Source: an uncultured Syntrophaceae bacterium
GTDB taxonomy: Bacteria; Desulfobacterota; BSN033; UBA1163
Assembly: GCA_964353925.1 (NCBI GenBank)
Contig: CAYGWV010000112.1
Coordinates: forward strand, 1 to 44,107
Length of the DNA: 44,107 nucleotides
Direction: 5' to 3'
The notes beneath the pieces are model-generated. The model made no database searches, had not been told where the DNA came from, and saw only the letters and a program-made list of their open reading frames with translations. The translations under genes and the position numbers were made by a program. Positions 6,323 to 20,404 of the stretch are shown here, one piece after another; positions within the stretch are counted from its first letter, which is position 1; each line of letters begins with the position of its first letter.

Positions 6323-6739
6323 ATGATGAAAATCGAACTAACGAGGCAAAACGTACACAATGAATTTACTAAGAAGGTGGAATTGATCAGCGGACAAAAC
6401 CTATTTGCCTGCTACCAGTGCGGGAATTGCACGGCGGGATGTCCAGTCGCCTTTGCCATGGAGGTGGGGCCACACCAGGTCATTCGGTACACGCTGCTCG
6501 GGTTGGAAGAGGAGGCCCTCGGAGTGAATACCTTCTGGCTTTGCGCCTCCTGCCTTCAATGCACGTCGAGGTGCCCCAAGGGAATCGATATTGCCAGGGT
6601 GATGGATGCATTGAGAATGGTGGTGTTGAGAAAGAAAGAGAGAAAAGACCACATTCAGATTCTTGAATTTCCAGAAGGATTTTTGGAGAAGCTGCCGCAA
6701 ATTGCATTCGTCAGCGGTTTTAGAAAATTTTTATCATAA
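6323..6739 (+). CDS. hdrC: HdrC-like 2x[4Fe-4S] ferredoxin subunit (copy 1)
   Basis: CYQCGNCTAGCP and CASCLQCTSRCPKGIDI motifs with the spacing typical of heterodisulfide reductase subunit C. It lies directly upstream of a CCG-domain protein. Confidence 0.8.
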   Translation: MMKIELTRQNVHNEFTKKVELISGQNLFACYQCGNCTAGCPVAFAMEVGPHQVIRYTLLGLEEEALGVNTFWLCASCLQCTSRCPKGIDIARVMDALRMVVLRKKERKDHIQILEFPEGFLEKLPQIAFVSGFRKFLS

Positions 6740-6749
6740 CGTAGAGAGA

Positions 6750-6823
6750 CTCCCCTTCCCTGGCGCCTGCCTGCGCGAAGCCGCTTCGGCGAAAGCAGGG
6801 GAGGGGACGAAGGGAAGGGGGAG
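6750..6823. repeat. Family C G/C-rich nested hairpin (CTCCCCTTCCC...GGGAAGGGGGAG)
   Basis: Outer arms 6750-6760 / 6812-6823, with inner cctgc..gcagg and gaagccgcttcggc hairpins. More C/G-tract sequence follows to about 6880. Confidence 0.7.
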
Positions 6824-6894
6824 AGTAACTGATTCACCCCCACCCGCACCGTCCCCCATCCACTGGGGAGGGGAAGGTTATCGCGGAGCTTGAA

Positions 6895-7764
6895 ATGGAA
6901 TATCTCTATTTTCCTGGGTGTACCCTTTATACCCAGGCGAAGAATTTTGATCAGACCGCTCGGAATTGTTCTCTTCTGCTCGGGTTTGAATTAAAGGAGC
7001 TCAAGAATTGGACCTGCTGCGGAGCGACCTTTCCTTTGGCTACCGATAACATTATGGCTCTTCTCCCTCCCTCAAGGATTCTGGCAACAGCGAGAGAAGA
7101 AGGGACTACCCTGACCACCCTCTGTGCCATCTGCTTTAACGTCATCAAAAGGACGAACCGATTGATTAAAGAAGATGGGGACAAGAGGGATAAGATCAAC
7201 AACTTTATTGAAAAAAATTACCAGGGAGATCTTCAAATCCTCCACTACTTAGAGATCCTTAAACAAAACGTCGGGTTTTCTCAACTTAAAGAAAAGACGA
7301 AGAAGCCGTTGGCGGGACTCAAAGCAGCGGCCTATTATGGATGCATGCTCCTCCGGCCATTTGAGGAGATGGGATTCGATGATAAGGAGAGGCCCACCCT
7401 GTTTGAGGATTTTCTTGAAGCATTGGGAGCAAAAGCGGTTGAATTTCCCTATAAGATCGAATGCTGTGGATCCTTTCAATCCGTAGGTTCACCCGATGTG
7501 GCGACAGAATGTGCCTATAAAATTCTCGGCTCGGCTCTAAAAAACGGGGCAGAGGCGATGGTTTCCACATGTCCGATGTGCACCTTCAACATCGACCACA
7601 AACAGTTTGATATCAAACAGAAATACTCAGATTTCAAACCCATCCCCGTATTCTATTTCACTCAACTGCTCGGAATGGCAATGGGACTCGATTATCAAAC
7701 TCTCGGATTTGAGCAAAATGCAGTCGATCCTTTGCCTCTCTTGAAAGAGAAAGGGCTTTTATAG
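6895..7764 (+). CDS. hdrB: HdrB-like subunit with two CCG cysteine-rich domains (copy 1)
   Basis: YFPGCT...NWTCCGATF (first CCG domain) and YYGCMLLRP...IECCGS...STCPMC (second CCG domain). Confidence 0.85.
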   Translation: MEYLYFPGCTLYTQAKNFDQTARNCSLLLGFELKELKNWTCCGATFPLATDNIMALLPPSRILATAREEGTTLTTLCAICFNVIKRTNRLIKEDGDKRDKINNFIEKNYQGDLQILHYLEILKQNVGFSQLKEKTKKPLAGLKAAAYYGCMLLRPFEEMGFDDKERPTLFEDFLEALGAKAVEFPYKIECCGSFQSVGSPDVATECAYKILGSALKNGAEAMVSTCPMCTFNIDHKQFDIKQKYSDFKPIPVFYFTQLLGMAMGLDYQTLGFEQNAVDPLPLLKEKGLL

Positions 7765-7774
7765 ACTCCCATTC

Positions 7775-7799
7775 CGCCCTCCCCCTGGAGGGGAGGGCG
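7775..7799. repeat. Family C hairpin CGCCCTCCCC-ctgga-GGGGAGGGCG
   Basis: Perfect 10-bp G/C stem with a 5-nt loop and no following T-run. Confidence 0.8.
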
Positions 7800-7826
7800 A
7801 GGGGGCAGGGTAAATGGCGTTGGCTT

Positions 7827-9209
7827 ATGAGTAAAGCGTTCGATGAAAACAGAGAAACCGACGCAGGGACTGCTCATAATGGTTTCATAAAGAGAGCGAT
7901 GGTGATCGGCGGGGGGATCGCCGGGATCTCTGCATCGATTGACCTGGGAAATGGGGGGTATGAAGTCGTCCTTGTGGAGAAGCTTCCATCCATCGGAGGC
8001 CGAATGCTTCAGCTTTCCGAAACCTTTCCCACCCTCGATTGTGCCCAGTGCACCTTAACTCCGAAAACGGTCGAGACGGGCCAGCATCCTCGCATCAGAC
8101 TTCTTACCTATTCTGAGGTGGACAGTGTTCAAGGAAAGGCCGGAGATTTTAGGGTAAGAATTCGAAGAAAAGCCGCCTATGTCGATTGGGAGAAATGCAC
8201 AGGCTGCGGCCTCTGTCAACAGAAATGCCCTTCGAAGAACCCATCTGAATTTGATCGGGGCATGGGACTGGGAAAAGCCATCCATACCTTATCGCCCCAG
8301 GCCGTTCCGAATAAACCTGTCATCAACCCTGCTCACTGCCGTTATTTTAAAGAAAAGAAATGCAGGGTATGTGAGAAGATCTGCCCGGTGGGAGCCATTG
8401 ATTACGAGCAGCAGGACCGTTTTGTAGAAGAAAGGGTAGGAGCCATCATTACGGCAGTGGGTTTTGATTTGATCCCTAAAGAAAGTTTTGGTGAGTATGG
8501 ATATGGTGACGTTCCGGATGTGATCGATGGCCTTGCCTTCGAGAGGCTCAATTCTGCATCTGGACCGACCACGGGGGAGATTCGTAGACCTTCAGACGGC
8601 AAAATTCCTAAAGAGGTGGTTTTCATTCAATGTACGGGGTCAAGAGATCCTGAGCGTTACATGCCTTACTGCTCACGGGTTTGCTGCATGTACACGGCCA
8701 AGCATGCCCGGCTCTATAAGCATAAGGTCCACGATGGGCAGGCCTATATCTTTTATATGGATATTCGCTCGACAGGAAAAGGGTATGAGGAGTTCATCCA
8801 GCAGGGAATGGAAGAAGAAGGGATCCTTTATTTGAGGGGGAGGGTTTCCCGAGTCTTTCGAGATGGAGAGAAGGTGGTCGTCTGGGGTGTGGACACATTG
8901 ACAGGGAAGAAAGTTGAGATTTCTGCGGATATGGTGGTATTAGCCACAGCGCTTATTCCCCAGAAGGAGTCGAAGGATCTCGCCGGAAAGTTGGGGATCA
9001 AAACAGATGAGCACGGTTTCTTAACAGAAGCCCAGAGAAAATTACGGCCTGTTGAAACGGATATCGATGGAATCTATATCGCAGGCTGTGCCCAGGGGCC
9101 CAAAGATATTGCCGATGCAGTGGCCCACGCCAATGCCGCAGCGAGCAAGGTGCAAGGGCTGTTCGCAAGACATAGAAACAACAATGGGAATAATGGAATA
9201 ATGGAATGA
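7827..9209 (+). CDS. hdrA: Short HdrA/QmoA-type FAD + FeS flavoprotein. Has the FAD domain with inserted ferredoxin domain but lacks the N-terminal Cys domain and the C-terminal ferredoxin domain.
   Basis: MVIGGGIAGISAS, TFPTLDCAQCTLTPK, CTGCGLCQQKCP, CRVCEKICP, CSRVCCMYTAKHA. 460 aa. Start is uncertain (ATG 7827 or ATG 7899). The tail ...NNNGNNGIME is encoded by repeat D1. Confidence 0.85.
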   Translation: MSKAFDENRETDAGTAHNGFIKRAMVIGGGIAGISASIDLGNGGYEVVLVEKLPSIGGRMLQLSETFPTLDCAQCTLTPKTVETGQHPRIRLLTYSEVDSVQGKAGDFRVRIRRKAAYVDWEKCTGCGLCQQKCPSKNPSEFDRGMGLGKAIHTLSPQAVPNKPVINPAHCRYFKEKKCRVCEKICPVGAIDYEQQDRFVEERVGAIITAVGFDLIPKESFGEYGYGDVPDVIDGLAFERLNSASGPTTGEIRRPSDGKIPKEVVFIQCTGSRDPERYMPYCSRVCCMYTAKHARLYKHKVHDGQAYIFYMDIRSTGKGYEEFIQQGMEEEGILYLRGRVSRVFRDGEKVVVWGVDTLTGKKVEISADMVVLATALIPQKESKDLAGKLGIKTDEHGFLTEAQRKLRPVETDIDGIYIAGCAQGPKDIADAVAHANAAASKVQGLFARHRNNNGNNGIME

Positions 9210-9292: not shown

Positions 9293-9337
9293 ACGAATGA
9301 AGGATAAGAAAAGGCCAATTGAGTTTTGAGAGGTTCC

Positions 9338-11290
9338 ATGCGCCGATTGGGAGTCTTTATCTGCCATTGTGGAGTCAATATTGCCGGGAGCGTCGATGTC
9401 AAATCGGTCGCCGAAAAGATAGGTGGGGTCGAAGACGTCGCCCACAGCACCGATTACATTTACATGTGCTCTGAACCAGGACAGCAAATGATTCGCGAGG
9501 CCGTTCGCGAGAAAGGCTTGGGAGGAGTGGTCGTGGCCTGTTGCTCGCCCAACATGCATGAGAATACCTTTCGGAAGGCCGTCAAATCTCAAAGGATGAA
9601 TCCCTATCTCTGTGAGATTGCGAATATTCGAGAACAGTGTAGCTGGGTCCATCAGAAGGAGAAGGGTGAAGCGACCCAAAAGGCAGAAGAGATCATCCAG
9701 GCCACCCTTGAAAAGGTGAGAAGGAACGAGTCGTTGGAGGCCATTGCCGTGGCCATCGACCGAAAGGTATTGGTGGTCGGCGGGGGAATTGCCGGAATCA
9801 CTGCCTCCCTCGATCTCGCTGAAGGAGGTTATGACGTCATTCTTGTGGAGAGGGAAGCTGCCCTGGGGGGACACATGGCCCAATTGTCAAGAACCTTTCC
9901 GGATCTCGATCCTGCTTCCAGTGGTATCCTCTCAAAAGCATCGGAAGTGGAGAAGCATCCAAAGATCCATCTTCACTGTTATTCTGAATTAGAAGAGGCG
10001 AAAGGGTATGTGGGGAATTTCGAGTTGGTGGTCCGTAGAAAAGCCACTTCCGTGGATGGAGGAAAATGCACGGGATGCGGCCTCTGCATAGAGAATTGTC
10101 CTGCAGAATATGTTTCGGAGTTTGAGAGGGGGATGGGACTGCGAAAAGCGATTGATACCCTGTACCTTTCGAGTATCCCCAATAAGCCTGTGATCGATCG
10201 TGGACATTGCCGATATTTTTTAGATGGAAGTTGTCATCGATGTGAAGAGATTTGTCCTGAGAAGGCCATCGATCTCAAACAGGAAGATGAACGGATTGCA
10301 GAGAAGGTGGGAGCCATTGTGGTTGCAACGGGATATGAGCTCTATCCCAAGGAACAATTAGGAGAGTATGGATACGGTGAAATCCCGGACGTGATCGATG
10401 GTCTTGCCTTTGAACGAATGCTTTCGCCCGAGGGTCCCACGAAAGGGAAAATCCTTCGGCCTTCTGATGGAAAGGTGCCGAGGGAGATGGTCTTTATACA
10501 GTGTGTGGCTTCAAGGGATCCAGACCGGTATATGCCTTACTGCTCGAGGGTTTGCTGTATGTACACGGCCAAGCATGCCAAAATTTATAAGGAACAGGTT
10601 CCGGACGGGCAGCCCTATATCTTTTATATGGATATTCGCTCGGACTGTAAAGGCTACGAGGAGTTCCTTCAGAAGACCATTGAGGAGAAAGGGCTTCTCT
10701 ATCTCAGGGGCCGCGTCTCCAAAGTTTTTCAGGACGATGGAAGGGTGAGGGTATTAGGAGTAGACACGCTGACCGGGAAAATGGTTGAAGTCGCAGCCGA
10801 TATGGTCGTCCTGGCCACAGCCATGGTTCCGAGCAAAGGAGTAAAAGATTTGGCTGCCAAACTGAGGGCGACCGTGGATCGACATGGTTTCTTGACAGAG
10901 GCCCATATCAAGCTCTATCCTGTGGAAAGCTCGACCAAAGGGATCTACCTTGCAGGGTGTGGCCAGAGTCCTAAAGATATTTCAGACACTGTGTCTCAGG
11001 CCTCGGCGACGGCCAGTAAAATTCAGGCTTTGCTTTCCGCGGACAAACTTCTTCAAGATCCTTTAATCGCATTTGTCGATGAAGGAATTTGCAGTGGATG
11101 TGGAATCTGTGTAGAAATCTGTCCCTATGAAGCAAGAGAGATGGATTCGCATCGCGGAGTTTCAATGGTTCAGAGCGCACTCTGCCAGGGATGCGGGGCT
11201 TGCATTGCTTCTTGTCCCAACAATGCCTGTGAGTTGAGAAACGGATCCGCAAACCAGGTCCTTCGGGTGGTCGATACGTTTGCTTCATAA
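9338..11290 (+). CDS. hdrA: Full-length HdrA-type flavoprotein (N-terminal Cys domain, FAD domain with inserted ferredoxin, C-terminal 2x[4Fe-4S] domain)
   Basis: GVFICHCGVNIAG...VVACCSPNMHE, VLVVGGGIAGITAS, CTGCGLCIENCP, CHRCEEICP, CSRVCCMYTAKHA, CSGCGICVEICP, CQGCGACIASCP. ATG 9338 follows GAGAGG; the ORF is open from TTG 9326. Confidence 0.9.
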   Translation: MRRLGVFICHCGVNIAGSVDVKSVAEKIGGVEDVAHSTDYIYMCSEPGQQMIREAVREKGLGGVVVACCSPNMHENTFRKAVKSQRMNPYLCEIANIREQCSWVHQKEKGEATQKAEEIIQATLEKVRRNESLEAIAVAIDRKVLVVGGGIAGITASLDLAEGGYDVILVEREAALGGHMAQLSRTFPDLDPASSGILSKASEVEKHPKIHLHCYSELEEAKGYVGNFELVVRRKATSVDGGKCTGCGLCIENCPAEYVSEFERGMGLRKAIDTLYLSSIPNKPVIDRGHCRYFLDGSCHRCEEICPEKAIDLKQEDERIAEKVGAIVVATGYELYPKEQLGEYGYGEIPDVIDGLAFERMLSPEGPTKGKILRPSDGKVPREMVFIQCVASRDPDRYMPYCSRVCCMYTAKHAKIYKEQVPDGQPYIFYMDIRSDCKGYEEFLQKTIEEKGLLYLRGRVSKVFQDDGRVRVLGVDTLTGKMVEVAADMVVLATAMVPSKGVKDLAAKLRATVDRHGFLTEAHIKLYPVESSTKGIYLAGCGQSPKDISDTVSQASATASKIQALLSADKLLQDPLIAFVDEGICSGCGICVEICPYEAREMDSHRGVSMVQSALCQGCGACIASCPNNACELRNGSANQVLRVVDTFAS

Positions 11291-11354
11291 AGCGCTGAGC
11301 GTCTGCTGGCGGTAAGTAGGCTTGGGATCTTTTATAATTAAGGAGGAGATAAAG

Positions 11355-11915
11355 TTGGAAACCGTGACCAGCGTGGGGAAAGTGGATTCCTCTTTCCTAG
11401 AAGAGGCAAAACAGAAGAGCGGGGAGGATCTCAGCCTCTGCTATCAGTGCTTGAAGTGTACAGCAGGGTGCCCGACTGCGCCTTATATGGATATTCGGCC
11501 TAACAGTATTATCCGGATGATCCAGATGGGGATGAAAAAAGAAGTTTTGGGAAGCAGTGCCATCTGGTTTTGCGTTTACTGTCAGACCTGCGGAACTCGC
11601 TGTCCGAATAAGATCCACATTGGAATCCTCATGGATGCCTTAAGGGAGATGGCCATGGAAGAGGGGATTCCGGCAAAAGAGAAGAATATTCATCTCTTCC
11701 ATGAAGCCTTTATTCAAAGCGTCCGAAGAGGGGGAAGGGCTCATGAGGTAACCATGTTGATGGACTATGTGCTCAGGAGCAGGGACTTGATGACAGATTC
11801 ACTTATCCCGGGCATCAGGCTCTTTTTGAAGGGCAAATTCCCCTTACTCCCCAGCTTCATCAAGGGGAGACAGGAGATCAAACGAATTTTTGAAAGGTGT
11901 GAACGAAAAAAATGA
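11355..11915 (+). CDS. hdrC: HdrC-like 2x[4Fe-4S] subunit (copy 2) with a longer C-terminal tail
   Basis: CYQCLKCTAGCP and CVYCQTCGTRCPNKI. The ORF is open from 11322, but AAGGAGGA at 11340-11347 favours TTG 11355 (or GTG 11364). Confidence 0.75.
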   Translation: METVTSVGKVDSSFLEEAKQKSGEDLSLCYQCLKCTAGCPTAPYMDIRPNSIIRMIQMGMKKEVLGSSAIWFCVYCQTCGTRCPNKIHIGILMDALREMAMEEGIPAKEKNIHLFHEAFIQSVRRGGRAHEVTMLMDYVLRSRDLMTDSLIPGIRLFLKGKFPLLPSFIKGRQEIKRIFERCERKK

Positions 11916-11921: not shown

Positions 11922-12033
11922 GGAACACTGGAACGGTGGAATATTGGAATAATGTTTTTTTCTGAAAGAAATTGTCATCCGTCGTTCGATTATTCAGTGT
12001 TTTTTGACACTATTCCATCATTCCAGAATTTCC
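11922..12033. repeat. Family D long hairpin, copy 2
   Basis: ggaacactggaacggtggaatattggaataatg (11922-11954) against cactattccatcattccagaatttcc (12008-12033). Confidence 0.8.
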
Positions 12034-12048: not shown

Positions 12049-12894
12049 ATGAGGTTCTCTTACTTTCCAGGCTGTACAGATCACTCGTCGTCTTTGGAAT
12101 ATGGGTTATCAACCCATGAGGTTTTTAAGACCCTGGGGGTGGAGTTGGTAGAGATCGAGGATTGGAACTGTTGTGGAGCTGCAGCGACCCATAGTCTCAA
12201 TCGTCTCCTTTCTCTCTGTCTTCCAGCCAGGAATATCTCCAAAGCGCAGTCAGCCCAGGCAGGACCTCTGGTCGTTCCCTGTGCCGGGTGTTTTAGCTAT
12301 CTGAAAAGGACCGAGCATGTCCTTAAAAACAATGAGGCGGAGCGAAAAGAGATTGAAGAGATCGTCGGGTTTACCTACCAGCCTTCTCTTGAAATTTTGG
12401 CTTTAATGGATGTCATCCTGAATCGAATTGGCTTGGAGAGAGTTCAAGAAAAGGTGAAGAGGCGTTTAAAAGGATTAAAGGCCGCCTGTTATTATGGATG
12501 TGCATTGGTTCGACATCCGAAAATTACTCAGTTGGATGATCCGGAGAATCCTCAATATCTGGACCGGTTGGTGACGGCCCTGGGCGCCCAGCCGGTGGAG
12601 TGGTCTTATAAAGTGGATTGTTGCGGTGCGGACTTGGCCATGACTTATGGAAAGGTGGTCAATACGATGGTGGGGAGAATTGTGTCCATGGCCAAGGAAG
12701 CAGGGGCTCAATGTATCGTCACCTCTTGCGGCCTCTGCCAGATGAACCTGGAGATGAGGCAGGACCTGGGTCTCCCCGTTTTTTACTTCACTGAATTGAT
12801 GGGAGTGGCCTTTGATGTTGAAAAGAAAGAGAACTGGTGGAAGAAGCATTTGATTTCTCCAAAGCCACTTCTTGAATCAATGGGGCTGGTATAG
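12049..12894 (+). CDS. hdrB: HdrB-like subunit with two CCG domains (copy 2)
   Basis: YFPGCT...DWNCCGAAA, VVPCAGC, YYGCALVRHP, VDCCGA, TSCGLCQMN. GGAGG lies 7 nt before ATG 12049. The upstream part of ORF 12004.. is repeat D2. Confidence 0.85.
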   Translation: MRFSYFPGCTDHSSSLEYGLSTHEVFKTLGVELVEIEDWNCCGAAATHSLNRLLSLCLPARNISKAQSAQAGPLVVPCAGCFSYLKRTEHVLKNNEAERKEIEEIVGFTYQPSLEILALMDVILNRIGLERVQEKVKRRLKGLKAACYYGCALVRHPKITQLDDPENPQYLDRLVTALGAQPVEWSYKVDCCGADLAMTYGKVVNTMVGRIVSMAKEAGAQCIVTSCGLCQMNLEMRQDLGLPVFYFTELMGVAFDVEKKENWWKKHLISPKPLLESMGLV

Positions 12895-12967: not shown

Positions 12968-15900
12968 ATGGGACAAGGCAAAACAAGAGGTGACAAATCA
13001 TCGGCGTTGGTGATTGGTGCAGGCATTGCTGGAATGCAATCTGCACTTCTGTTAGCAGAGATGGGAACAAAGGTTTTTCTCTTAGAGCAGGGACCGGCGA
13101 TTGGAGGTTATTTCCCGTTGCTGGATAAGACCTTTCCCACCAACTCCTGTGGAGTCTGCTTCATGAGCCCCACTCCTCCTGCCTTCTGCCCTATTTATGA
13201 ATGTCATCTTCATGACAATATCGAATTGTTGCCCTATTCAGAAGTGGTGAAGGTGGAGGGGCAAGGGGGAGATTTCAATGTCGCCGTCGTCCGGAAGCCT
13301 CGGTTCGTTGATCCAAAACGCTGCACCCTTTGTGAAGCCTGTATAAAGGCTTGTCCCGTGGAGGTGGAGAGAGAATTTGGGGGTGGTTTGGAGAGACGAA
13401 AGGCGATCTACTTTCCCTATCCTCAGGCCATCCCGCACAGCTTCGTGATTGATCCAAGAACCTGTACCCGATGTGGAGAATGTGTGAAGGTCTGTAGCCC
13501 CGGGGCGATCGATCTCAATATGAAAGAAGAACATGAGACGATCGAGGCTGGAGCCATCCTTTTGGGGTACGGGTTTGAGCCCTTTCTGGCGCAGAGAAAA
13601 GGGGAGTATGGCTTTGGTAGATACGAGAATGTGATGACGAGCATTCAGTTTGAGAGATTGCTCTCCACATCGAGTCCGACACAGGGGCTGCCCATTCGGG
13701 TTTCCGACGGGAAAAGGATGGAGAGGATTGCGTTCATCCAGTGCGTGGGGTCAAGGGATCCCTCCTGCGGTCAGGATCACTGTTCCACCATTTGCTGCAT
13801 GTACGCTACTAAACAGGCCATGATTGCAAAAGACAGGTCCCCCGGTCTTGGAGTAGCCTTCTTCTACATGGATATTCGACCGATGGGGAAGGATTACGAA
13901 CGATATTATGAGAGGGCAAAGACCGAGTACGGGATTGAATATATCCGGAGTGCCATCTCCTCGATCAAAGAACTTCAGCAGACGAAAAATCTTCTGATCA
14001 CCCATGTCAAAGAGGACGGGACCTTTGAAGAGAGGGAGTTCGATGCCGTCGTCCTTTCCTTGGGTTTTACCCCACCGCAGACCATAAAAGATTCAGCCCA
14101 AAAAATGGGTCTCCGATTGAATCAACAAGGGTTTTGCCAGACGGACGAGTTCAATCCTGCTCAAACCTCCGTGAGCGGAATTTTTGTGGGAGGGGCATTT
14201 CGGGGCCCCAGGGATATTCCTGAGACGGTTGTAGAAGGGTCGAGTGCTGCGGCATTGGCTGCATCCTTTCTCGTCCCCAATCGTCTTCCTCAGCCTCTCA
14301 AAGAGTATCCCATGGAAGGGGCTTTGGGTGACGAGATTCCAAAAATAGGGGTCTTCCTCTGCCATTGCGGTGAGGAGTTGAAGAAGAGCCTATTTATTTC
14401 TGACCTCGTCAGCGGGGCAAAGCAGCTGAGGGAGGTGGTCCATGTTGAAGAGTTCGGTTTGGCTTGCCTTCCAGAAGATTTGGATCTCATCAAAAAGAGG
14501 ATTGGGGAACAGGGTCTCAACCGAATCGTCATCGCCGGTTGTTCCCATCGGGAGATTCGAGGAGCTATGGAGGAGATGGCAAAAGGAATGGGTTTCAATC
14601 CCTACCTCATCGAATATGCCAACATAAGGGAACAATGTGCCTTTGTCCATTTAGATTACCCCAAATTGGCCACAGAGAAGGCGATGGCTCTCATCAAGAT
14701 GGCTGTGGAAAAGGCGAAGCGATTTCAACCCATTCGAAAAGGGAAACAGAAGATCGATAAAAAGGGATTGGTGGTAGGCGGAGGCCTCGCCGGCATGACG
14801 GCATCCCTGCAGCTGGCTCGGCAGGGATACGAGATTCATTTGATCGAGAAAGAGAAAGAACTGGGAGGGAACTTAAAGGAATCCTTCTATACGTTGAAGG
14901 GATCAAATCCCCAAGACCTTTTAAATAAACTCATTAAACAGGTGGAAGGCAATGACTCCATCCACCTCTATTCCGAGACAGAGGTTCTTGGATTCGAAAA
15001 GAAAAATGGGCACTATCAAACAAAGATTCGTCATCGGGATGAGGAGAAGATCATTGACCACGGGGCATTAATCCTGGCCACCGGTGGGAAAGAAGTGATT
15101 CCCAAAGAATACCTTTATGGAGAAGACACCCGGGTCATGACCCAAAGACAGTTGGAGAGGATGATCCATTCAAATGATAAAAGTTTAAAGGATATTCATT
15201 CGTTGGTGATGATTCAATGTGTCGGTTCCAGAGATGAAGACCATCCCTATTGCAGTCGCATTTGTTGCGGGCATGCAGTGAAGAATGCTTTGAAGTTAAA
15301 GGAAAAAGATCCAGGGATGAATATCTACGTGCTCTACCGAGATGTGAGGACCTACGGATTTTATGAGACCTATTACCACGAGGCGAGAGAGAAGGGTGTG
15401 ATCTTCATTCGATATGACCTGGAGAATAAACCGAAGGTTGATCTCCAGGAAGGAAGCCTTCAGGTCTCCCTGTTCGATCCTGCGATGAATGGTCCGATCG
15501 TTCTCCCGGCCGATCGTGTCATCCTGAGCGCTGGCATCGAGTCCAGTGACCATCAGGAGTTGGCGAGAATTTTCGATGTGGATTTGAATCCGGATGGTTT
15601 TTTCATGGAGGCCAATCCCAAATCGGCTCCTCTTGATTCGGTGGACCGTGGAAAATTCTTCTGTGGCCTCTGCCATTCCCCTAATTTTATTGAAGATACC
15701 ATCTCCCAGGGAAATGCCGCTGCTGCCAGAGCGGGTGCACTTCTGGCCAAGGAGGCTGTGGAAGAAAAGGCCTATTTGGCCTATGTAATTAAGAGGCTCT
15801 GCTGCGGGTGTGGCCTATGTGTCAGCGTTTGCCCGTATGATGCCAGAGTCTTGAATGAAGAGGAAGGTAAGGCTGAAGTGATTGGTTCGCTCTGTCAGGG

Positions 15901-16000
15901 GTGCGGCTCCTGCGTCATCGCTTGCCGGAATGGAGCCTCCCAGCAGCGTAACTTTGAGAAAGATTTGAATCTGGCTGCCCTGGATGCGGTCATTGATTAG
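12968..16000 (+). CDS. hdrA: 1010-aa tandem fusion of two HdrA-type modules (QmoA-like module, then an N-domain + FAD module + C-terminal ferredoxin domain)
   Basis: Module 1: LVIGAGIAGMQSA, TFPTNSCGVCFMSP, CTLCEACIKACP, CTRCGECVKVCSP, CSTICCMYATK. Linker and N-domain: GVFLCHCGEEL...IAGCSHRE. Module 2: LVVGGGLAGMTAS, CSRICCGHAVK (no inserted ferredoxin domain). C-terminus: CCGCGLCVSVCP, CQGCGSCVIACRNG. Confidence 0.85.
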   Translation: MGQGKTRGDKSSALVIGAGIAGMQSALLLAEMGTKVFLLEQGPAIGGYFPLLDKTFPTNSCGVCFMSPTPPAFCPIYECHLHDNIELLPYSEVVKVEGQGGDFNVAVVRKPRFVDPKRCTLCEACIKACPVEVEREFGGGLERRKAIYFPYPQAIPHSFVIDPRTCTRCGECVKVCSPGAIDLNMKEEHETIEAGAILLGYGFEPFLAQRKGEYGFGRYENVMTSIQFERLLSTSSPTQGLPIRVSDGKRMERIAFIQCVGSRDPSCGQDHCSTICCMYATKQAMIAKDRSPGLGVAFFYMDIRPMGKDYERYYERAKTEYGIEYIRSAISSIKELQQTKNLLITHVKEDGTFEEREFDAVVLSLGFTPPQTIKDSAQKMGLRLNQQGFCQTDEFNPAQTSVSGIFVGGAFRGPRDIPETVVEGSSAAALAASFLVPNRLPQPLKEYPMEGALGDEIPKIGVFLCHCGEELKKSLFISDLVSGAKQLREVVHVEEFGLACLPEDLDLIKKRIGEQGLNRIVIAGCSHREIRGAMEEMAKGMGFNPYLIEYANIREQCAFVHLDYPKLATEKAMALIKMAVEKAKRFQPIRKGKQKIDKKGLVVGGGLAGMTASLQLARQGYEIHLIEKEKELGGNLKESFYTLKGSNPQDLLNKLIKQVEGNDSIHLYSETEVLGFEKKNGHYQTKIRHRDEEKIIDHGALILATGGKEVIPKEYLYGEDTRVMTQRQLERMIHSNDKSLKDIHSLVMIQCVGSRDEDHPYCSRICCGHAVKNALKLKEKDPGMNIYVLYRDVRTYGFYETYYHEAREKGVIFIRYDLENKPKVDLQEGSLQVSLFDPAMNGPIVLPADRVILSAGIESSDHQELARIFDVDLNPDGFFMEANPKSAPLDSVDRGKFFCGLCHSPNFIEDTISQGNAAAARAGALLAKEAVEEKAYLAYVIKRLCCGCGLCVSVCPYDARVLNEEEGKAEVIGSLCQGCGSCVIACRNGASQQRNFEKDLNLAALDAVID

Positions 16001-16132: not shown

Positions 16133-16555
16133 ATGGCTGAGTTTGAACCGAGGATTGTAGCCTTTTTATGCCACTGGTGCACTTATACGGGAGCGGATCT
16201 CGCCGGGACGACTCGACAACAGTATCCTCCCAATATCCGCGTTATCCATTTGATGTGCTCGGGAGCTGTGGACTCCATCTATGTGCTCAAAGCCCTTATT
16301 GACGGGGCGGATGGCGTGTTGATCGGTGGTTGCCATCCAGGAGACTGTCATTATCAGACAGGAAATTACAAGGCCCGGAGAAGAGTTGCCATTCTAAAAG
16401 GCATCCTTCAACAAATGGGTTATACGGATGATCGAATCTGGCTCAAGTGGATCAGTGCCAGTGAAGGAAAACTCTATGCAGACACGGTGACCAAGATGGT
16501 AGATGAATTAAAGAAGATGGGTCCAAACCCAATGAAACAACTCTGGAACGCCTAA
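16133..16555 (+). CDS. mvhD: MvhD / FlpD-type [2Fe-2S] electron-transfer subunit (methyl-viologen-reducing hydrogenase delta subunit family)
   Basis: IVAFLCHWCTYTGADLAG...IRVIHLMCSGAVD...GADGVLIGGCHPGDCHYQTGN matches the family signature. AGGAGG precedes ATG 16133. Confidence 0.9.
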   Translation: MAEFEPRIVAFLCHWCTYTGADLAGTTRQQYPPNIRVIHLMCSGAVDSIYVLKALIDGADGVLIGGCHPGDCHYQTGNYKARRRVAILKGILQQMGYTDDRIWLKWISASEGKLYADTVTKMVDELKKMGPNPMKQLWNA

Positions 16556-16566: not shown

Positions 16567-16587
16567 CCTCCCCCTTGATGGGGGAGG
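16567..16587. repeat. Family C hairpin CCTCCCCC-ttgat-GGGGGAGG
   Basis: 8-bp G/C stem with a 5-nt loop. Confidence 0.7.
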
Positions 16588-16632
16588 AGACTTTGAGGGT
16601 GGTTTTATTATACGAAAGGAGAATGACCGGAC

Positions 16633-17781
16633 ATGGCGAAGAAGGCAGCGGTTAAAGTGATCGATGGAAAAACAGATGAGGCGATCATTGGCTTTTTGAA
16701 ATCCCTTTTAAAAGAGGGAATGGTAGATGCGATTCTTATACCCAAACCCCTCCCTTCACAGGATGGTTTCGTACAAACATTAATTCGAGATCCAGAAAAG
16801 TTAAATGGAGTGTGTGTCCTTTCACCCACCATGCCCGTTCAGTCTGCGAGGGTCATCTCCAATCTCAGTGTTAAAAATCTGGGGAAGAAAGTCGCTGCCG
16901 TATTAAAAGCCTGTGAGATACGGGCCGCTGTTGAATTGGCAAAATTTCTCCAGGTCAAACTGGACAACGTATGTTTTATCGGTATCGATTGCCCTGGAAC
17001 CTTTGAGGTAGCCGATTATGCAAAGATGGTACAGGAGGGAAAAGGAGGGGGGGCTTTGGCAAAAGAGTTGCTCAAAGGCATGGAGAAGGGTGAAATCTCC
17101 CCGCCCGCTGGGTATGCTTTCCGGACCGCTTGTCAGATGTGTGAATATCCTGTCCCTCAAGCGGATATCCGTCTTAAGCTTTTTGGCTACCAGGGAGATC
17201 AAGCGATCGGCATTGAGATCGGGGATAAATTGGAAAAGGAGATCGAAGAGAAGGGGATCTTTTCTTTTTTAGAAAGTGAACCGGCTTCGAGGAGCGAGGT
17301 GGTTAATAAAGTCATCGCTGAGAGGACAAAGAAGCGAGATGCCCTTTTCCAGGAATTCAAAGGTATGGCCAAAGATCTTCAAGCCTTTTTAGACCGTTTT
17401 TCCACCTGTATTCGTTGCCACAATTGTATGGTGGCCTGTCCGATTTGTTATTGTAAAGAGTGTGTTTTCAAGACGGCGGTCTTTGAGCACGATGGAGATC
17501 AATTCCTAAGGTGGGCCGATCGAAAGGGTGAAATCCGAATGCCAACCGACACGCTCATCTTCCATCTCATCCGGATGTCCCACATGGTGACTTCTTGCAT
17601 CGGCTGCGGACTTTGTGACAGTGCCTGCCCGAGCCGATTGCCTGTCGCCACACTCTTTCGGAGTGTGGGAGATAAAATTCAGAAGATGCTCAATTATATT
17701 CCGGGAAAAGATGTAAAAGAGGTACCCCCTGTGGCCACCTTCAAAGAAGACGAATTGAAGATTGAATCTGGAGCCCTATAA
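16633..17781 (+). CDS. FrhB/FdhB-like (F420 hydrogenase/dehydrogenase beta-type) domain protein with a C-terminal 2x[4Fe-4S] domain
   Basis: C-terminal CIRCHNCMVACPICYC and CIGCGLCDSACP motifs. The N-terminal 230 aa (GFLKSLLKEGMVDAILIP..., VLKACEIRAAVELAK, FIGIDCPG) resemble the FrhB/FdhB fold by recalled pattern only and need HMM confirmation. Confidence 0.55.
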   Translation: MAKKAAVKVIDGKTDEAIIGFLKSLLKEGMVDAILIPKPLPSQDGFVQTLIRDPEKLNGVCVLSPTMPVQSARVISNLSVKNLGKKVAAVLKACEIRAAVELAKFLQVKLDNVCFIGIDCPGTFEVADYAKMVQEGKGGGALAKELLKGMEKGEISPPAGYAFRTACQMCEYPVPQADIRLKLFGYQGDQAIGIEIGDKLEKEIEEKGIFSFLESEPASRSEVVNKVIAERTKKRDALFQEFKGMAKDLQAFLDRFSTCIRCHNCMVACPICYCKECVFKTAVFEHDGDQFLRWADRKGEIRMPTDTLIFHLIRMSHMVTSCIGCGLCDSACPSRLPVATLFRSVGDKIQKMLNYIPGKDVKEVPPVATFKEDELKIESGAL

Positions 17782-17784
17782 TTA

Positions 17785-17882: not shown

Positions 17883-17895
17883 AAGGAGAAGATCG

Positions 17896-18636
17896 ATGGC
17901 AGCAGAAGAGAAAAAGAGAGAGGATTTGATTCCTATTTTCATCATGGGGAAGCGGTATGAGGTCCCTTCCTCCCTTACCATTCAAAAGGCATTGGAGTAT
18001 GCGGGATATCAATTGGTCCGGGGATGCGGATGCCGGGGAGGGATATGCGGGGCTTGCGGGACGGTCTATCGGTTTCCAGGAAGTTATAAGATTGAAGTAG
18101 GGCTGGCTTGCCAGACCATGGTTCAGCCGAATATGTATCTTGCACAATTACCCTTTTTTCCGGCCACCAAAACCGTCTATGACATCGAGAAGGTAAAACC
18201 CACTATCGAGACACTGGTGAAGGCCTATCCGGAATTGTTGAGATGTCTCCAGTGTAATACCTGTACGAAGTCCTGCCCGATGGACATTGAGGTCATGGAT
18301 TACATCGCCGCAGCGATGAGGGGAGACGTTGCACGGTTAGCGGAGCTCTCCTTTGATTGTGTGATGTGCGGCCTCTGTACTTCCCGCTGTCCTGCAGAAA
18401 TCTGTCAATACAATATCGCCATCCTGGGAAGAAGGCTTTATGCTAAATATGTTGCCCAGAAGGCCGAGCATCTGGCTGCCATGGTGAAAATGGTTGAAAC
18501 GGACAGATATGAACCGATGTTAAAGGAATTGATGGATACGGATGAGGATACTTTAAAGAAACTGTATACGGCGAGAGAGACTGAACCGGAGCAGGCTGAC
18601 GAGTATTGGACCCCAAAAGATAAAACGTACCTATAA
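17896..18636 (+). CDS. frdB: Fumarate reductase/succinate dehydrogenase Fe-S subunit-like protein (FrdB/SdhB; matches the N-terminal part of TfrB), without a CCG extension
   Basis: CGCRGGICGACG (2Fe-2S-type cluster), CLQCNTCTKSCP and CVMCGLCTSRCP. Only 246 aa. AAGGAG precedes ATG 17896. Confidence 0.75.
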   Translation: MAAEEKKREDLIPIFIMGKRYEVPSSLTIQKALEYAGYQLVRGCGCRGGICGACGTVYRFPGSYKIEVGLACQTMVQPNMYLAQLPFFPATKTVYDIEKVKPTIETLVKAYPELLRCLQCNTCTKSCPMDIEVMDYIAAAMRGDVARLAELSFDCVMCGLCTSRCPAEICQYNIAILGRRLYAKYVAQKAEHLAAMVKMVETDRYEPMLKELMDTDEDTLKKLYTARETEPEQADEYWTPKDKTYL

Positions 18637-18641
18637 ATAAA

Positions 18642-18709
18642 GCATGGAGCAGAGGGCATAGGGTAGTGATAATCTTTTGGCTCTATGCTCTTTGCTCTAT
18701 GCCCTATGC
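18642..18709. repeat. Family B inverted repeat, copy 2
   Basis: gcatggagcagagggcataggg (18642-18663) against ctctatgctctttgctctatgccctatgc (18681-18709). The right arm accounts for the spurious N-terminal extension of ORF 18677... Confidence 0.8.
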
Positions 18710-18730
18710 CGGATAGAAGTTGGAGGAATC

Positions 18731-20404
18731 ATGCCATACACAAGGGAATTGAAAGAACTGATCAAAAAGGTTGAGGCAACACGACCTGGACGAGTCGAAA
18801 AAAAGAAGAGGGGAGAAGAGTTTCATCTTCTCTCTTTGAAAGAGAGGCAGGAACGACTGGAGAAATACCATCCCGATTTCAAGGCGGGATCAAAGAGGGA
18901 GATCCGGGTCGGCCCCAGTAAAGGCTACGCTATCTCTCCTGAGATCGTGGATCTTCTCGAAGCCAGAAGCAGACTGAACCCTGATTTGATCGATTTAAAC
19001 AAAATTGCGTACGAGACGGATGTCCTCATCATTGGCGGAGGAGGAGCAGGGACAGCGGCTGCACTGATGGTCCAGGAACATGGCGTGCGGGTGACGATTG
19101 CGACTAAGCTCAGGCACGGTGATGCAAATACGATGATGGCCGAAGGGGGAATTCAGGCAGCCTCCAAGGGAGAGAAGGATTCACCCTACTTCCATTACCT
19201 TGATGTGTTGGGCGGAGGCCATTTTAAGAATGTTCCGGAACTGGCCTGCACCCTTGTGACAGAGGCCCCGAAGATACATGCCTGGCTCGAAAACCTCGGG
19301 TGTATGTTTACAAAATTCCCGGATGGCCGTTTGAAAGCGCTTCATGGGGGAGGTACCTGCCGGAAACGGATGCACTATGCGGCGGACATTACGGGTGCAG
19401 AAATCATGCGAACCCTAAGGGATGAAGCAAGGAACCGAGTTCAGGACATCAAGGTCCTTGAATTTTCTCCAGCCGTAGAGTTGATCTTGAATGAGCACGG
19501 CCATTGTGCCGGCGCCGTCCTTTATAACCTCGAGACAGAAGAGTATTTTGTGGTCAAGGCAAAGGCAGTGGTGATGGCGACGGGTGGTTCGGGAAGACTC
19601 CACATTCAAGGATTCATGACCACCAATCATTATGGCGCGACGGGAGACGGTCTTGTGATGGGTTACCGGGCGGGAGTGAAGGTCTGTTTTCTCCACACGG
19701 TTCAGTACCATCCCACAGGGGTTGCCTTTCCGGAGCAGGCGGAAGGTATTCTGATCACAGAGAAGTTCAGGGGAGCAGGCGCCAATGTGCTGAATATCGA
19801 TGGTGAACAGTTCGTCAACGAACGGGAACCGAGGGACATAGAATCCTCATGCTTTATCCGGGAATGCACGCAGGTCGGGAAGGGAATCCCAACTCCCGCC
19901 GGAAAAATGGGGATATGGTTGGATTCCCCGATGATCGACATGCTGATGGGCGAAGGGGCCGTCAAGCGCGAGTTCCCCGGCAAATATATTCTTCTGAAGC
20001 GCTTCGGCATCGACATCTCGAAGGAGCCCATGCTGGTTTACCCAACCCTCCACTACCAGAATGGCGGATTGGAATACAATAACAGGTGCGAAACCTCCAT
20101 CCCGGGGCTTTTTTCCTCAGGCGAGGTTTCGGGAGGAGTCCATGGCGAAAACCGGCTGATGGGAAACTCCCTACTTGATGTCTGCGTCTTTGGAAGAATC
20201 GGAGGAGTGAGTGCGGCACTCTATGTCAAGGAGAAGGCAAAAGACGGGAGGCTAACCTTGGATCATGTCCGGAGATATCACAAGGAGTTGGAGGAGGCAG
20301 GGATCATCACAGACCGCGTGGCGCCGATGTTGCTCCCCGATTATTCCAATCCAAAAGTTCGGGAGCGTCAGCTGACCGCCCATTATGTGGGGACCATCCG
20401 GTAA
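18731..20404 (+). CDS. frdA: Fumarate reductase/succinate dehydrogenase flavoprotein-like subunit (FrdA/TfrA type, probably non-covalent FAD) with an N-terminal extension of about 100 aa
   Basis: DVLIIGGGGAGTAAA, MMAEGGIQAA (no His at the covalent-FAD position), QYHPTG, ITEKFRGAGANVLN, HYQNGGL, GENRLMGNSLLDVCVFGR. GGAGGA precedes ATG 18731. Confidence 0.8.
   Translation: MPYTRELKELIKKVEATRPGRVEKKKRGEEFHLLSLKERQERLEKYHPDFKAGSKREIRVGPSKGYAISPEIVDLLEARSRLNPDLIDLNKIAYETDVLIIGGGGAGTAAALMVQEHGVRVTIATKLRHGDANTMMAEGGIQAASKGEKDSPYFHYLDVLGGGHFKNVPELACTLVTEAPKIHAWLENLGCMFTKFPDGRLKALHGGGTCRKRMHYAADITGAEIMRTLRDEARNRVQDIKVLEFSPAVELILNEHGHCAGAVLYNLETEEYFVVKAKAVVMATGGSGRLHIQGFMTTNHYGATGDGLVMGYRAGVKVCFLHTVQYHPTGVAFPEQAEGILITEKFRGAGANVLNIDGEQFVNEREPRDIESSCFIRECTQVGKGIPTPAGKMGIWLDSPMIDMLMGEGAVKREFPGKYILLKRFGIDISKEPMLVYPTLHYQNGGLEYNNRCETSIPGLFSSGEVSGGVHGENRLMGNSLLDVCVFGRIGGVSAALYVKEKAKDGRLTLDHVRRYHKELEEAGIITDRVAPMLLPDYSNPKVRERQLTAHYVGTIR

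Follow-up and report, generated by a model that had tools for sequence, protein, structure and literature searches.

Eleven genes for a putative soluble fumarate reductase tied to Hdr-type modules in an uncultured Syntrophaceae bacterium

What could a run of heterodisulfide reductase (Hdr)-type genes that ends in a fumarate reductase-like pair do in a cell when no hydrogenase, no catalytic formate dehydrogenase subunit and no membrane anchor is encoded beside it? This question is raised by a locus of an uncultured Syntrophaceae bacterium (assembly GCA_964353925.1, contig CAYGWV010000112.1), in which eleven open reading frames (ORFs), all on the + strand, occupy positions 6323-20404 of the window, i.e., the whole stretch of DNA that was analysed, which is the entire public contig of 44,107 bp. 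Judging from the encoded sequences, the eleven genes most likely specify a membrane-free iron-sulfur (FeS)/flavin machine that reduces fumarate to succinate, and the surplus energy of fumarate reduction is probably spent on low-potential ferredoxin. Protein identities were assigned by Pfam, NCBIfam and PDB comparisons, and the genes are the following (aa, amino acids):

6323-6739, + strand: hdrC1, HdrC-type protein, two [4Fe-4S] clusters, 138 aa (Fer4_8/9/17; TIGR03290, E 2e-20; two CxxCxxCxxxC motifs)
6895-7764, + strand: hdrB1, HdrB-type protein with two CCG domains, 289 aa (PF02754, two stretches), predicted to hold two non-cubane [4Fe-4S] clusters
7827-9209, + strand: short HdrA, 460 aa (NF040770 HdrA2, model positions 139-562, E 8e-144)
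9326-11290, + strand: long, full-length HdrA, 654 aa (5odc_A, E 1.7e-181, colinear with residues 7-646); the start is probably ATG 9338
11355-11915, + strand: hdrC2, HdrC-type protein, two [4Fe-4S] clusters (ORF opens at 11322; TIGR03290, E 1.4e-20; cysteine motifs)
12049-12894, + strand: hdrB2, HdrB-type protein with two CCG domains (ORF opens at 12004; PF02754, E 3e-27, two stretches)
12968-16000, + strand: fused HdrA::HdrA, 1010 aa (NF040770, E 1e-251, three stretches; 5odc_A, E 8e-162)
16133-16555, + strand: MvhD-type [2Fe-2S] adaptor, 140 aa (PF02662, E 1e-50, full length; VhuD NF045873, E 4e-41)
16633-17781, + strand: FdhB-type flavo/FeS subunit, 382 aa (profile of its orthologues against PDB)
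17896-18636, + strand: frdB, FeS subunit resembling FrdB and the N-terminal part of TfrB, 246 aa (cysteine pattern; weak TfrB/FrdB/SdhB matches)
18731-20404, + strand: frdA, FrdA/TfrA-like flavoprotein, 557 aa (ORF opens at 18677; PF00890 FAD_binding_2, E 1e-72)

When starts supported by a ribosome-binding site are used, namely TTG 11355 (preceded by AAGGAGGAG), ATG 12049 (which follows GGAGG) and ATG 18731, the intergenic gaps within the cluster are about 62-155 nt. A bidirectional, intrinsic-terminator-like hairpin with flanking A and T runs (AAAAAATCCCCC...GGGGGATTTTTT, 20451-20493) is the first convincing terminator of the cluster and marks its 3' end; the genes located 3' of frdA vary among relatives and are not conserved. 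In a hydropathy scan with 19-residue windows none of the eleven products contained a transmembrane (TM)-like segment, the only windows with a hydropathy of at least 1.6 being Rossmann GxGxxG strands. Pfam and NCBIfam scans gave no match to a hydrogenase subunit, FdhA or a membrane anchor among the genes of the 44-kb contig, and in these scans neither the eleven products nor the neighbouring ones matched an NAD(P)H-binding subunit of the Flx type, MvhD (FlxD-like) being the sole component in common with FlxABCD-HdrABC systems. In its main points, including the terminator, the missing subunits and a context of carboxyltransferase, mdh and fumarase genes upstream and sucCD downstream, the description given in a first-pass annotation of the locus was confirmed; a LacI-type regulator and a MenA-like gene must be added to that context. 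No match was returned by Rfam and tRNA scans of the window, and a promoter-like scan gave 20 matches vs 18.4 in shuffled controls, i.e., no excess, and is uninformative on internal promoters. Another GC-rich hairpin, CGCCCTCA-gtaaa-TGAGGGCG, separates the menA-like gene from hdrC1 (6281-6301); with an A-run ahead of it and no T-run behind, it resembles an opposite-strand terminator, yet no minus-strand gene terminates there, and it may instead be an RNA-stability or attenuation element.

Is the terminal pair a fumarate reductase? The exact 557-aa FrdA-like product is also called in public data, and its residues His327, Thr343/Glu344, Arg347, His441 and Arg475 align with His232, Thr244/Glu245, Arg287, His355 and Arg390 of Escherichia coli FrdA, these fumarate-site residues being invariant in 47 relatives. 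At the position of the histidine that binds flavin adenine dinucleotide (FAD) covalently it carries Asn133; the motif NTMMAEGG is identical in all 81 loci with a full-length FrdA-like match, which belong to many phyla, and the distant subfamily members that could be checked have Asn too, vs His in canonical SdhA/FrdA representatives. The C-terminal domain PF02910 was not matched in this protein even at E values up to 10. Thus, the marks of classical complex II (succinate:quinone and quinol:fumarate reductases, SQR/QFR, types A-E), which are the covalent-FAD His, PF02910 and a membrane anchor, are missing here. The best NCBIfam model is that of TfrA, the flavoprotein of the archaeal thiol:fumarate reductase TfrAB (NF004900, 320 bits vs a cutoff of 718, model positions 5-422 of 546), followed by general SdhA/FrdA models and then NadB, all of them far under the curated cutoffs. 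Assignment to L-aspartate oxidase NadB was considered and dropped, since the cutoff of TIGR00551 is missed (264 bits vs 452.75) and an FeS partner adjoins the gene in all but one (L073) of the loci that include this stretch and is once fused to it.

A further trait of the FrdA-like protein is an N-terminal extension of about 95 aa (encoded at 18731-19015) with the motif HPD[YF]-x(8-10)-G[PA]NKG, which subfamily members as distant as about 37% identity still carry and which canonical SdhA, FrdA, NadB and TfrA lack. In an exhaustive search of 1.84 billion representatives the sequences bearing this extension formed a discrete top group at about 270-620 bits, while general family members aligned only from residue ~95 onward and with no more than about 290 bits. 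An AlphaFold2 model of the protein (47 homologues, 87-98% identical) was too poor to interpret, with a mean pLDDT of 38.9 and a pTM of 0.34. By these comparisons the FrdA-like protein belongs to a distinct, very conserved subfamily, which automatic pipelines label merely as "succinate dehydrogenase/fumarate reductase flavoprotein".

The identity of its partner is less direct. The cysteines of the FrdB-like protein (C46-x4-C51-x2-C54...C72 and two CxxCxxCxxxCP motifs) are predicted to hold one [2Fe-2S] and two [4Fe-4S] clusters. Similarity to known proteins is weak, with E 1.2e-7 for the N-terminus of TfrB and 2e-5 to 5e-5 for Wolinella and M. smegmatis FrdB/SdhB; the Fer2_3 match was not significant, and a profile of 14 orthologues compared with PDB found generic polyferredoxins at the top and SdhB/FrdB only at E ~3e-5 and in the junction region. 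Therefore, the name frdB given in the first-pass annotation is sustained by the cluster-binding pattern and the context and finds little backing in sequence homology. The gene directly precedes frdA in all loci in which that stretch is present, with the exception of L073, and a sequence from the representative library (P0289) is a natural 727-aa FrdB::FrdA fusion, FrdB-like at residues 2-237 (34% identity) and FrdA-like at 230-727 (47%), which supports that both proteins act as one unit. It follows that FrdBA is a dicarboxylate (fumarate/succinate) redox module.

Whether this module belongs together with the Hdr genes can be judged from its relatives. At least 569 species-level genomes, which come from more than 10 phyla and include Thermodesulfobacteriota, Syntrophorhabdus, Ignavibacteria, Zixibacteria, Planctomycetota, Aminicenantes, Fermentibacteria, Dehalococcoidia, KSB1, Myxococcota and others, encode FrdA-like proteins 72-90% identical to that of the window; among the matches listed, the closest are metagenome-assembled genomes (MAGs) of Syntrophaceae (90%), and Syntrophorhabdus MAGs are also close. 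Gene arrangements were counted in 66 informative loci, i.e., those with enough upstream sequence, and in 60 of them hdrC-hdrB, alone or with hdrA/mvhD/fdhB-like genes, lie on the same strand directly upstream of frdBA. These 60 include loci of Thermodesulfobacteriota, Ignavibacteria, Zixibacteria, Planctomycetota, Aminicenantes, Fermentibacteria and Dehalococcoidia. The arrangements found were:

Type A, 21 loci: minimal hdrC-hdrB-frdB-frdA
Type B, 8 loci: hdrC-hdrB-hdrA-mvhD-frdB-frdA
Type C, 29 loci: the arrangement of the window (11 genes, same order)
Type D, 2 loci: hdrAs-hdrA-hdrAA-mvhD-fdhB-hdrC-hdrB-frdB-frdA
Type E, 6 loci: no hdr genes within reach

A survey for the 11-gene order, which the first-pass annotation had proposed, thus recovered it in these 29 type C loci and, together with upstream genes, in over 40 metagenome contigs from the lineage of the window (see below). 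In at least three of the type E loci frdBA lies among genes for multihaem cytochrome c, NrfC/NrfD-like proteins and molybdopterin oxidoreductases. In L062 (6166-16223; also L063 and L072) frdBA lacks hdr neighbours and is accompanied by a Qrc/ACIII-like set including an FeS gene, which suggests a form of this catalytic pair linked to the membrane or to quinones. Fumarase genes are found near frdBA in several other phyla. Two related contigs, L153 (10-1600) and L157 (2-1600), have, besides the frdA-like gene expected to close the cluster, a second copy (~71% identical) that lies about 4 kb upstream of oadA.

The same counts bear on the explanation that frdBA encodes an independent soluble fumarate reductase or aspartate-oxidase-like enzyme which lies beside unrelated Hdr genes by chance or for regulatory reasons. 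The long intergenic gaps would fit such an adjacency, as would the comparable score of the flavoprotein on NadB models (264 bits) and the report that in Endoriftia the expression pattern of tfrAB differs from that of the neighbouring hdr-flx genes (PMC11636981). On the other hand, the Hdr linkage is repeated in 60/66 loci, over more than 10 phyla and in four arrangements, the hdrC1/hdrB1 genes of the window are orthologous to the pair that adjoins frdBA elsewhere, and, unlike in NadB, an FeS partner adjoins the flavoprotein (in all but L073) and is sometimes fused to it, while the NadB cutoff is not reached. We consider mere adjacency barely credible.

The orthology of the two hdrC-hdrB pairs is informative on how the cluster is built. 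HdrC1 scores best against hdrC of type A and type B loci and is the orthologue of the hdrC adjacent to frdBA in minimal clusters; likewise, hdrB1 is the orthologue of the hdrB that adjoins frdBA in type A and type B loci. In the type D loci (L050 and L076) it is hdrB2 that corresponds to the hdrB next to frdBA, so that the pair of types A and B is the first pair of the window (6323-7764) and that of type D the second one. The first pair of the window lies 10 kb from frdBA, and its orthology with frdBA-adjacent pairs ties both ends of the 11-gene cluster together. FrdB-like, HdrC and HdrB cover the TfrB model PRK06259 at positions 19-109, 115-228 and 261-468, respectively. Since 60/66 loci carry hdrC-hdrB upstream of frdBA, the core looks, at the level of gene content, like a TfrAB-like enzyme in split form, one that accepts various Hdr modules; it follows that FrdBA is functionally tied to HdrCB-type proteins and that some lineages add Hdr-type bifurcation hardware to this core.

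Both HdrB proteins retain intact CCG motifs (in HdrB1, C9-x31-CC-x34-CxxC and C150-x39-CC-x34-CxxC), and HdrB1 matches methanogen HdrB over its full length (8rvu_b, 5e-50; 5odc_B, 3e-41). As for HdrA, comparison of the domains indicates two short+long pairs, of which the first is spread over two genes and the second is a fusion; in front of each stands a separate hdrC-hdrB. The short HdrA (7827-9209) has the thioredoxin reductase-like FAD core, the inserted ferredoxin domain and a CxxC pair (TFPTLDCAQC), neither an N-terminal domain nor a C-terminal ferredoxin domain being present. The long HdrA (9326-11290) has the N-terminal domain, the FAD core and both the inserted and the C-terminal ferredoxin domains, and has lost the CxxC pair. 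In the fusion the N-half, which keeps CxxC (TFPTNSCGVC) as well as the inserted ferredoxin domain, corresponds to the short module; the C-half corresponds to the long one, having an N-terminal domain plus a C-terminal ferredoxin domain and lacking CxxC and the inserted ferredoxin domain. The flavin-N5 lysine equivalent to Lys409 of M. wolfeii is kept in all four modules (Lys416 of the long HdrA by alignment), the CxxC pair in the two short ones only, and no module reaches a curated NCBIfam equivalog cutoff. Related clusters with a single HdrA keep the canonical full-length form with CxxC.

The MvhD-type adaptor is followed by the 382-aa protein that the first-pass annotation had called FrhB-like and regarded as the input module. 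This label was replaced by FdhB-type, as the FrhB Pfam models are sub-threshold (E 0.052 and 0.0021) and a profile of 11 orthologues matches FdhB at full length (9t1s_M, 2.9e-45; 7bkb_E, 4.6e-44; 8rvu_E, 4.7e-39); the JGI annotation likewise reads "formate dehydrogenase (F420) beta". In the solved Hdr-Fdh complexes (7bkb, 9t1s) MvhD and FdhB form the electron route into HdrA. An input role is thus retained as a candidate route for an FdhB-type protein, with the reservation that neither FdhA nor a hydrogenase subunit is encoded beside it in the 44-kb contig.

Taken together, the products may form one cytoplasmic complex or tightly cooperating sub-complexes. The terminal module would be a fumarate reductase with non-covalent FAD (FrdA-like and FrdB-like) wired to HdrC/HdrB-type proteins, these four together representing a split version of TfrAB, and to this core the lineage of the window would have added two HdrA pairs of the short+long kind, another HdrCB pair, MvhD and the FdhB-type subunit. 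In the proposed sequence of events, a mid-potential donor would feed the FdhB-like protein and then MvhD, the candidates being a hydride carrier (for example F420H2 or NAD(P)H) that reacts with the flavin of FdhB, or else formate, by way of an FdhA whose gene lies elsewhere. Electrons would arrive at the FAD of an HdrA pair and bifurcate there: the high-potential electron would pass through HdrC, the non-cubane clusters of HdrB and the clusters of FrdB to the FAD of FrdA and on to fumarate (E0' ~+30 mV), and the low-potential electron would leave through the inserted ferredoxin domain of HdrA to ferredoxin. The conversion of oxaloacetate to malate, fumarate and succinate would in this way pay for ferredoxin reduction, with mdh/fumAB encoded directly upstream and sucCD downstream. 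Standard potentials are +30 mV for fumarate, about -450 to -500 mV for ferredoxin, -320 mV for NADH, about -340 to -360 mV for F420 and about -430 mV for formate, so the coupled reaction would be comfortably exergonic. This route as a whole, with entry at FdhB-like/MvhD, bifurcation at HdrA and branches to fumarate and to ferredoxin, is put forward tentatively, at slightly less than an even chance, and we infer in it the complex, the bifurcation, the donor and the direction alike. Functional coupling of Frd and Hdr is, in turn, far more likely than chance adjacency because the catalytic residues are kept, mdh and fumarase adjoin and the Hdr linkage recurs in 60/66 loci; to this extent the first-pass suggestion of an Hdr-wired fumarate reductase stands, and the confurcating option offered along with it is disfavoured by the invariant Asn.

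Several points weigh against the bifurcating route. The cluster is known from its genes alone, it lacks FdhA, a hydrogenase or an NAD(P)H-binding subunit, and the homology to FrdB is weak. For an operon, the gaps of 60-155 nt are wide, and there is a hairpin ahead of the first hdrC. In about 9% of the informative loci frdBA is accompanied by different genes (cytochrome c, NrfCD-like and molybdopterin-oxidoreductase genes), and the minimal hdrCB-frdBA clusters devoid of HdrA imply that bifurcation cannot be a core property. By homology, the CCG clusters of HdrB are a disulfide/thiol site and not a wire, and two HdrCB pairs are superfluous for a single direct wire and would suit a thiol/disulfide shuttle equally well.

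In such a shuttle the locus would encode two enzymes joined by a carrier, a small thiol or a DsrC/TusA-like protein: HdrC1B1-FrdBA would act as a thiol:fumarate reductase (2 RSH + fumarate -> RSSR + succinate), and HdrC2B2 with the HdrA pairs, MvhD and the FdhB-like subunit as a bifurcating disulfide reductase that regenerates the thiols along with ferredoxin reduction, comparable to Tfr vs Hdr-Mvh in Methanothermobacter. The presence of two full HdrCB pairs that differ in orthology, the first being linked to frdBA and the second to the HdrA/MvhD/FdhB module, agrees with this explanation, and so do the conservation of all ten CCG cysteines of the disulfide-reducing site in both HdrB proteins, the 21 loci with HdrA-less hdrC1-hdrB1-frdBA clusters, as a stand-alone Tfr-like enzyme would predict, and the domain content of TfrB (FrdB + HdrC + HdrB). 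A DsrC-like carrier was suggested for the Endoriftia system (PMC11636981), and a DsrE-like gene is present in the related type B locus L056. The cluster of the window contains no genes for a thiol carrier or for thiol-cofactor biosynthesis, and types B and D combine one HdrCB pair with HdrA and frdBA, which direct wiring fits better. Moreover, coenzyme M (CoM) and coenzyme B (CoB) are not known in these bacteria, which also speaks against the shuttle. It is held to be a serious, if unlikely, alternative.

In the same locus L056 (12058-21667) the genes behind frdA are, in this order, two sets of alpha/beta genes and a gamma gene for 2-oxoacid:ferredoxin oxidoreductase, the DsrE-like gene, and a second module mvhD-short hdrA-hdrA-fdhB-like without hdrBC. 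The oxidoreductase genes would be ferredoxin consumers beside the proposed ferredoxin producer.

A stronger form of direct wiring would be a single soluble supercomplex of the eleven proteins, with two HdrA modules in series or in parallel and with the HdrB clusters as a wire to a docked fumarate reductase rather than a disulfide site. The drop of about 350-450 mV from the mid-potential donor to fumarate would yield ferredoxin reduction, and the two coupled HdrA bifurcation modules can be likened to class II benzoyl-CoA reductase (BCR). We regard this full form as doubtful.

In BCR (BamBCDEFGHI), two HdrA units are fused in BamE (about 1000 aa), and a single flavin of this dimer carries out the bifurcation. 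The high-potential electron leaves by the non-cubane clusters of the HdrBC-like BamD and is taken up by a flavoprotein at about +16 mV (bioRxiv 10.64898/2026.04.10.717634); this transfer to the electron-transferring flavoprotein (ETF) shows that a flavoprotein of comparable potential can receive electrons from HdrB-type non-cubane clusters. The likeness, drawn from architecture, comprises the fused HdrA dimer, the MvhD-like adaptor BamF and a precedent for wiring of HdrB to Frd. BCR differs in its low-potential output, which is the tungsten protein BamBC and not free ferredoxin, in its NuoEFG/HydBC-like input and in its acceptor, ETF instead of a fumarate reductase.

The genes upstream of the cluster are relevant to two further explanations, and they are:

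1345-2487, + strand: LacI-family regulator (Pfam)
2565-3530, + strand: malate dehydrogenase, mdh (Pfam)
3635-4474, + strand: class I fumarase alpha, fumA (Pfam)
4566-5123, + strand: class I fumarase beta, fumB (Pfam)
5228-6241, + strand: MenA-like UbiA-family prenyltransferase (PF01040; MenA NCBIfam models below cutoffs; 7 TM-like segments)

A carboxyltransferase gene (transcarboxylase 5S/OadA-type) also lies upstream, and the order oadA-lacI-mdh-fumA-fumB-(menA)-hdrC1-...-frdA is kept in the contigs (>40) of the window's lineage mentioned above. The part lacI-mdh-fumA-fumB-(menA)-hdrC1 was checked in about 40 related metagenome contigs of at least 9 kb, most of which keep it; the menA-like gene is missing from about 10 of them (about a quarter), in which fumB directly precedes hdrC1. 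Because of these absences the menA-like gene was ruled out as a core part and is seen as an optional insert.

One of the explanations is quinone-linked and non-bifurcating: HdrB1 and HdrC1 would serve as a CCG-type, SdhE-like anchor of a peripheral FrdBA, and the Hdr/MvhD/FdhB proteins would be a separate enzyme. The MenA-like gene located directly upstream is consistent with it, as are the nearly equal scores of HdrB1 on the SdhE model of methylmenaquinol:fumarate reductase (MFR) and on the HdrB model (188 vs 193 bits) and the type E loci that place frdBA with NrfD-type quinone-interacting membrane complexes. However, with curated cutoffs of 500 and 345 bits both scores are far too low, methanogen HdrB is matched by HdrB1 at full length (E 5e-50), about 1/4 of the related contigs lack the menA-like gene, types B and C have HdrA/MvhD genes between hdrB1 and frdB, and no hydrophobic or TM segment is present in the 11 products. 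This makes a quinone link very improbable for the window. With type E SQR and MFR the locus shares a CCG protein combined with an SdhAB-type pair; the differences are the score of HdrB1 below the 500-bit cutoff, the lack of the covalent-FAD His, an HdrC-type dicluster protein in place of SdhF, and the interleaved HdrA/MvhD genes.

The other explanation is that the system runs in reverse: during syntrophic degradation of propionate or alkanes it would serve the methylmalonyl-CoA pathway as a confurcating succinate dehydrogenase, in which succinate (+30 mV) together with reduced ferredoxin would reduce a mid-potential carrier, or CO2 to formate, through MvhD/FdhB. Membrane-driven reverse electron transport would thereby be replaced. 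Among the matches listed, the nearest relatives are MAGs of Syntrophaceae and Syntrophorhabdus; a Smithella genome was reported to lack canonical sdh genes (PMC5606693). The transcarboxylase 5S/OadA-type gene, mdh, fumAB and sucCD of the window form a methylmalonyl-CoA pathway gene set, and an FdhB-type subunit suits formate as an interspecies electron carrier. Nevertheless, the midpoint (+30 + -500)/2 is about -235 mV vs about -290 mV or lower for formate/H2 in situ, so the thermodynamics would be marginal, and the FrdBA family is also found in non-syntrophic phyla and beside ferredoxin-consuming 2-oxoacid oxidoreductases. As known from FrdA mutants in the covalent flavin, enzymes without the covalent link reduce fumarate and oxidise succinate poorly; the invariant Asn at the covalent-FAD position therefore favours the reductive direction and disfavours confurcating succinate oxidation. 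The Glu of the AEGG motif, an Frd-type signature, is retained and constitutes weak evidence in the same sense. Overall, the reverse direction appears improbable.

Downstream, a poly-gamma-glutamate (PGA) gene set is located at 26478-31407, between the frd cluster and sucCD, and a 2025 preprint links propionate-pathway genes with PGA synthesis in Cloacimonadota. Its members are:

26478-28460, - strand: gamma-glutamyltransferase
28703-29863: pgsB
29857-30291: small overlapping ORF
30292-31407, - strand: gamma_Glu_sys protein

Farther along, in prfB (release factor RF2, 38923-40017), the sequence CTT TGA C (about 38987-38993) is a classic site of programmed +1 frameshifting; only the downstream frame (39034-40017) is in the ORF list, and the NCBIfam match begins at model position 31.

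How far is such a system already known? For TfrAB of Methanothermobacter, the accounts that PMC6315080 and PMC8542988 give of Heim et al. (1998) describe a fumarate reductase that is soluble and lacks a membrane anchor. The core of the window is like TfrAB in the lack of an anchor, in the combination of an FrdB-like FeS domain with CCG domains and in TfrA being the best model of the flavoprotein. It differs in that the TfrB domains are split over three genes with an extra dicluster module, in that the flavoprotein has the ~95-aa N-terminal extension, lacks the C-terminal domain and scores 320 bits vs the 718 cutoff, and in the HdrA, MvhD and FdhB genes embedded in the cluster; CoM/CoB thiols are not expected in these bacteria. 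With the methanogen complexes HdrABC-MvhAGD and Hdr-FdhAB-MvhD (5odc, 7bkb, 8rvu, 9t1s) the locus shares full-length homologues (E 1e-181 to 1e-39) with the FAD-site Lys and the CCG motifs kept. In the window, however, hydrogenase and FdhA are lacking, there are two HdrCB pairs, HdrA comes twice as complementary short (CxxC) and long (no CxxC) modules, and a fumarate reductase pair replaces or joins the heterodisulfide as the presumed high-potential acceptor. Bacterial HdrBCA-MvhD-FdhBA clusters that do contain FdhA are known from genomes (PMC5736913).

Closer to the present locus, tfrAB genes interleaved with flxABCD-hdrABC and korABCD were found in reductive tricarboxylic acid (rTCA) cycle clusters of tubeworm symbionts and Thioflavicoccus, and a complex feeding fumarate reductase as well as 2-oxoglutarate:ferredoxin oxidoreductase (OGOR) was proposed (Rubin-Blum et al., 2019; PMC6315080). 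The cluster of the tubeworm symbiont Endoriftia was later reported to be co-expressed with the exception of tfrAB (Mitchell et al., 2024; PMC11636981), a TFR-OGOR-fumarase-sucCD-Mvh-Hdr cluster was described in Cloacimonadota (Williams et al., 2021; PMC8542988), and the bifurcation idea was restated in a 2026 survey (PMC13147460). These systems resemble that of the window in that genes for a soluble fumarate reductase of the AB type interleave with those for a bifurcating Hdr-type module amid C4-dicarboxylate/TCA genes, and joint reduction of fumarate and ferredoxin was proposed for them based on genomes and transcripts only. They differ in the input, which is FlxABCD (NADH) or the MvhAG hydrogenase vs an FdhB-type subunit without its catalytic partner in the window, where, in addition, the HdrA pairs (one split, one fused) and HdrCB are doubled and the host is a Syntrophaceae-like member of the Thermodesulfobacteriota. 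The soluble NADH:fumarate reductase of Hydrogenobacter/Aquifex, with five subunits (Miura et al., 2008, as summarised in PMC13147460; subunits in PMC10052474), can be compared by description only: it is likewise a soluble multi-subunit enzyme of the reductive TCA branch with FrdA- and FrdB-type subunits and no anchor, and, as far as these summaries tell, its genes are scattered, it uses NADH with no bifurcation reported, and its accessory aq_116, nox and dmsB2 are not annotated as Hdr, MvhD or FdhB.

The idea of a Hdr-linked TfrAB-like fumarate reductase is, accordingly, one that has already been proposed from genomes and transcriptomes (PMC6315080, PMC11636981, PMC8542988, PMC13147460) and is anticipated in print. 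The searchable literature, including that on Syntrophaceae, Smithella and Syntrophorhabdus, yielded no biochemical characterisation or description of this 11-gene architecture, so that the first-pass remark on the lack of a characterised enzyme of this composition holds and the concept behind it is less new than the remark implied. What is new here is the orphan FdhB-type input, the doubled HdrA pairs, split and fused, the doubled HdrCB and the widespread FrdBA subfamily with non-covalent FAD.

Fumarate reduction is among the most exergonic cytoplasmic redox steps open to anaerobes. If its coupling to ferredoxin is true, the locus would encode a soluble source of low-potential electrons for organisms that lack Rnf or membrane-bound fumarate reductases, electrons that could serve 2-oxoacid synthases, CO2 reduction or H2/formate production, and the energy balance of reductive TCA branches and of succinate and propionate fermentations would change. 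If the eleven proteins do form a supercomplex, fumarate would be a new physiological high-potential acceptor for Hdr-type bifurcation, and the minimal HdrCB-FrdBA core, present in more than 10 phyla, would point to a widespread bacterial enzyme class. Given the generic label that pipelines assign to the FrdBA subfamily, metabolic reconstructions may misread it or call the step "missing". Finally, the modular series in which one catalytic module is combined with HdrCB, with added HdrA-MvhD, with doubled HdrA pairs and FdhB, or with cytochrome and NrfCD partners would represent a natural experiment on varied electron-transfer backbones, one that may also test whether the non-cubane clusters of HdrB serve as a wire to a protein partner.

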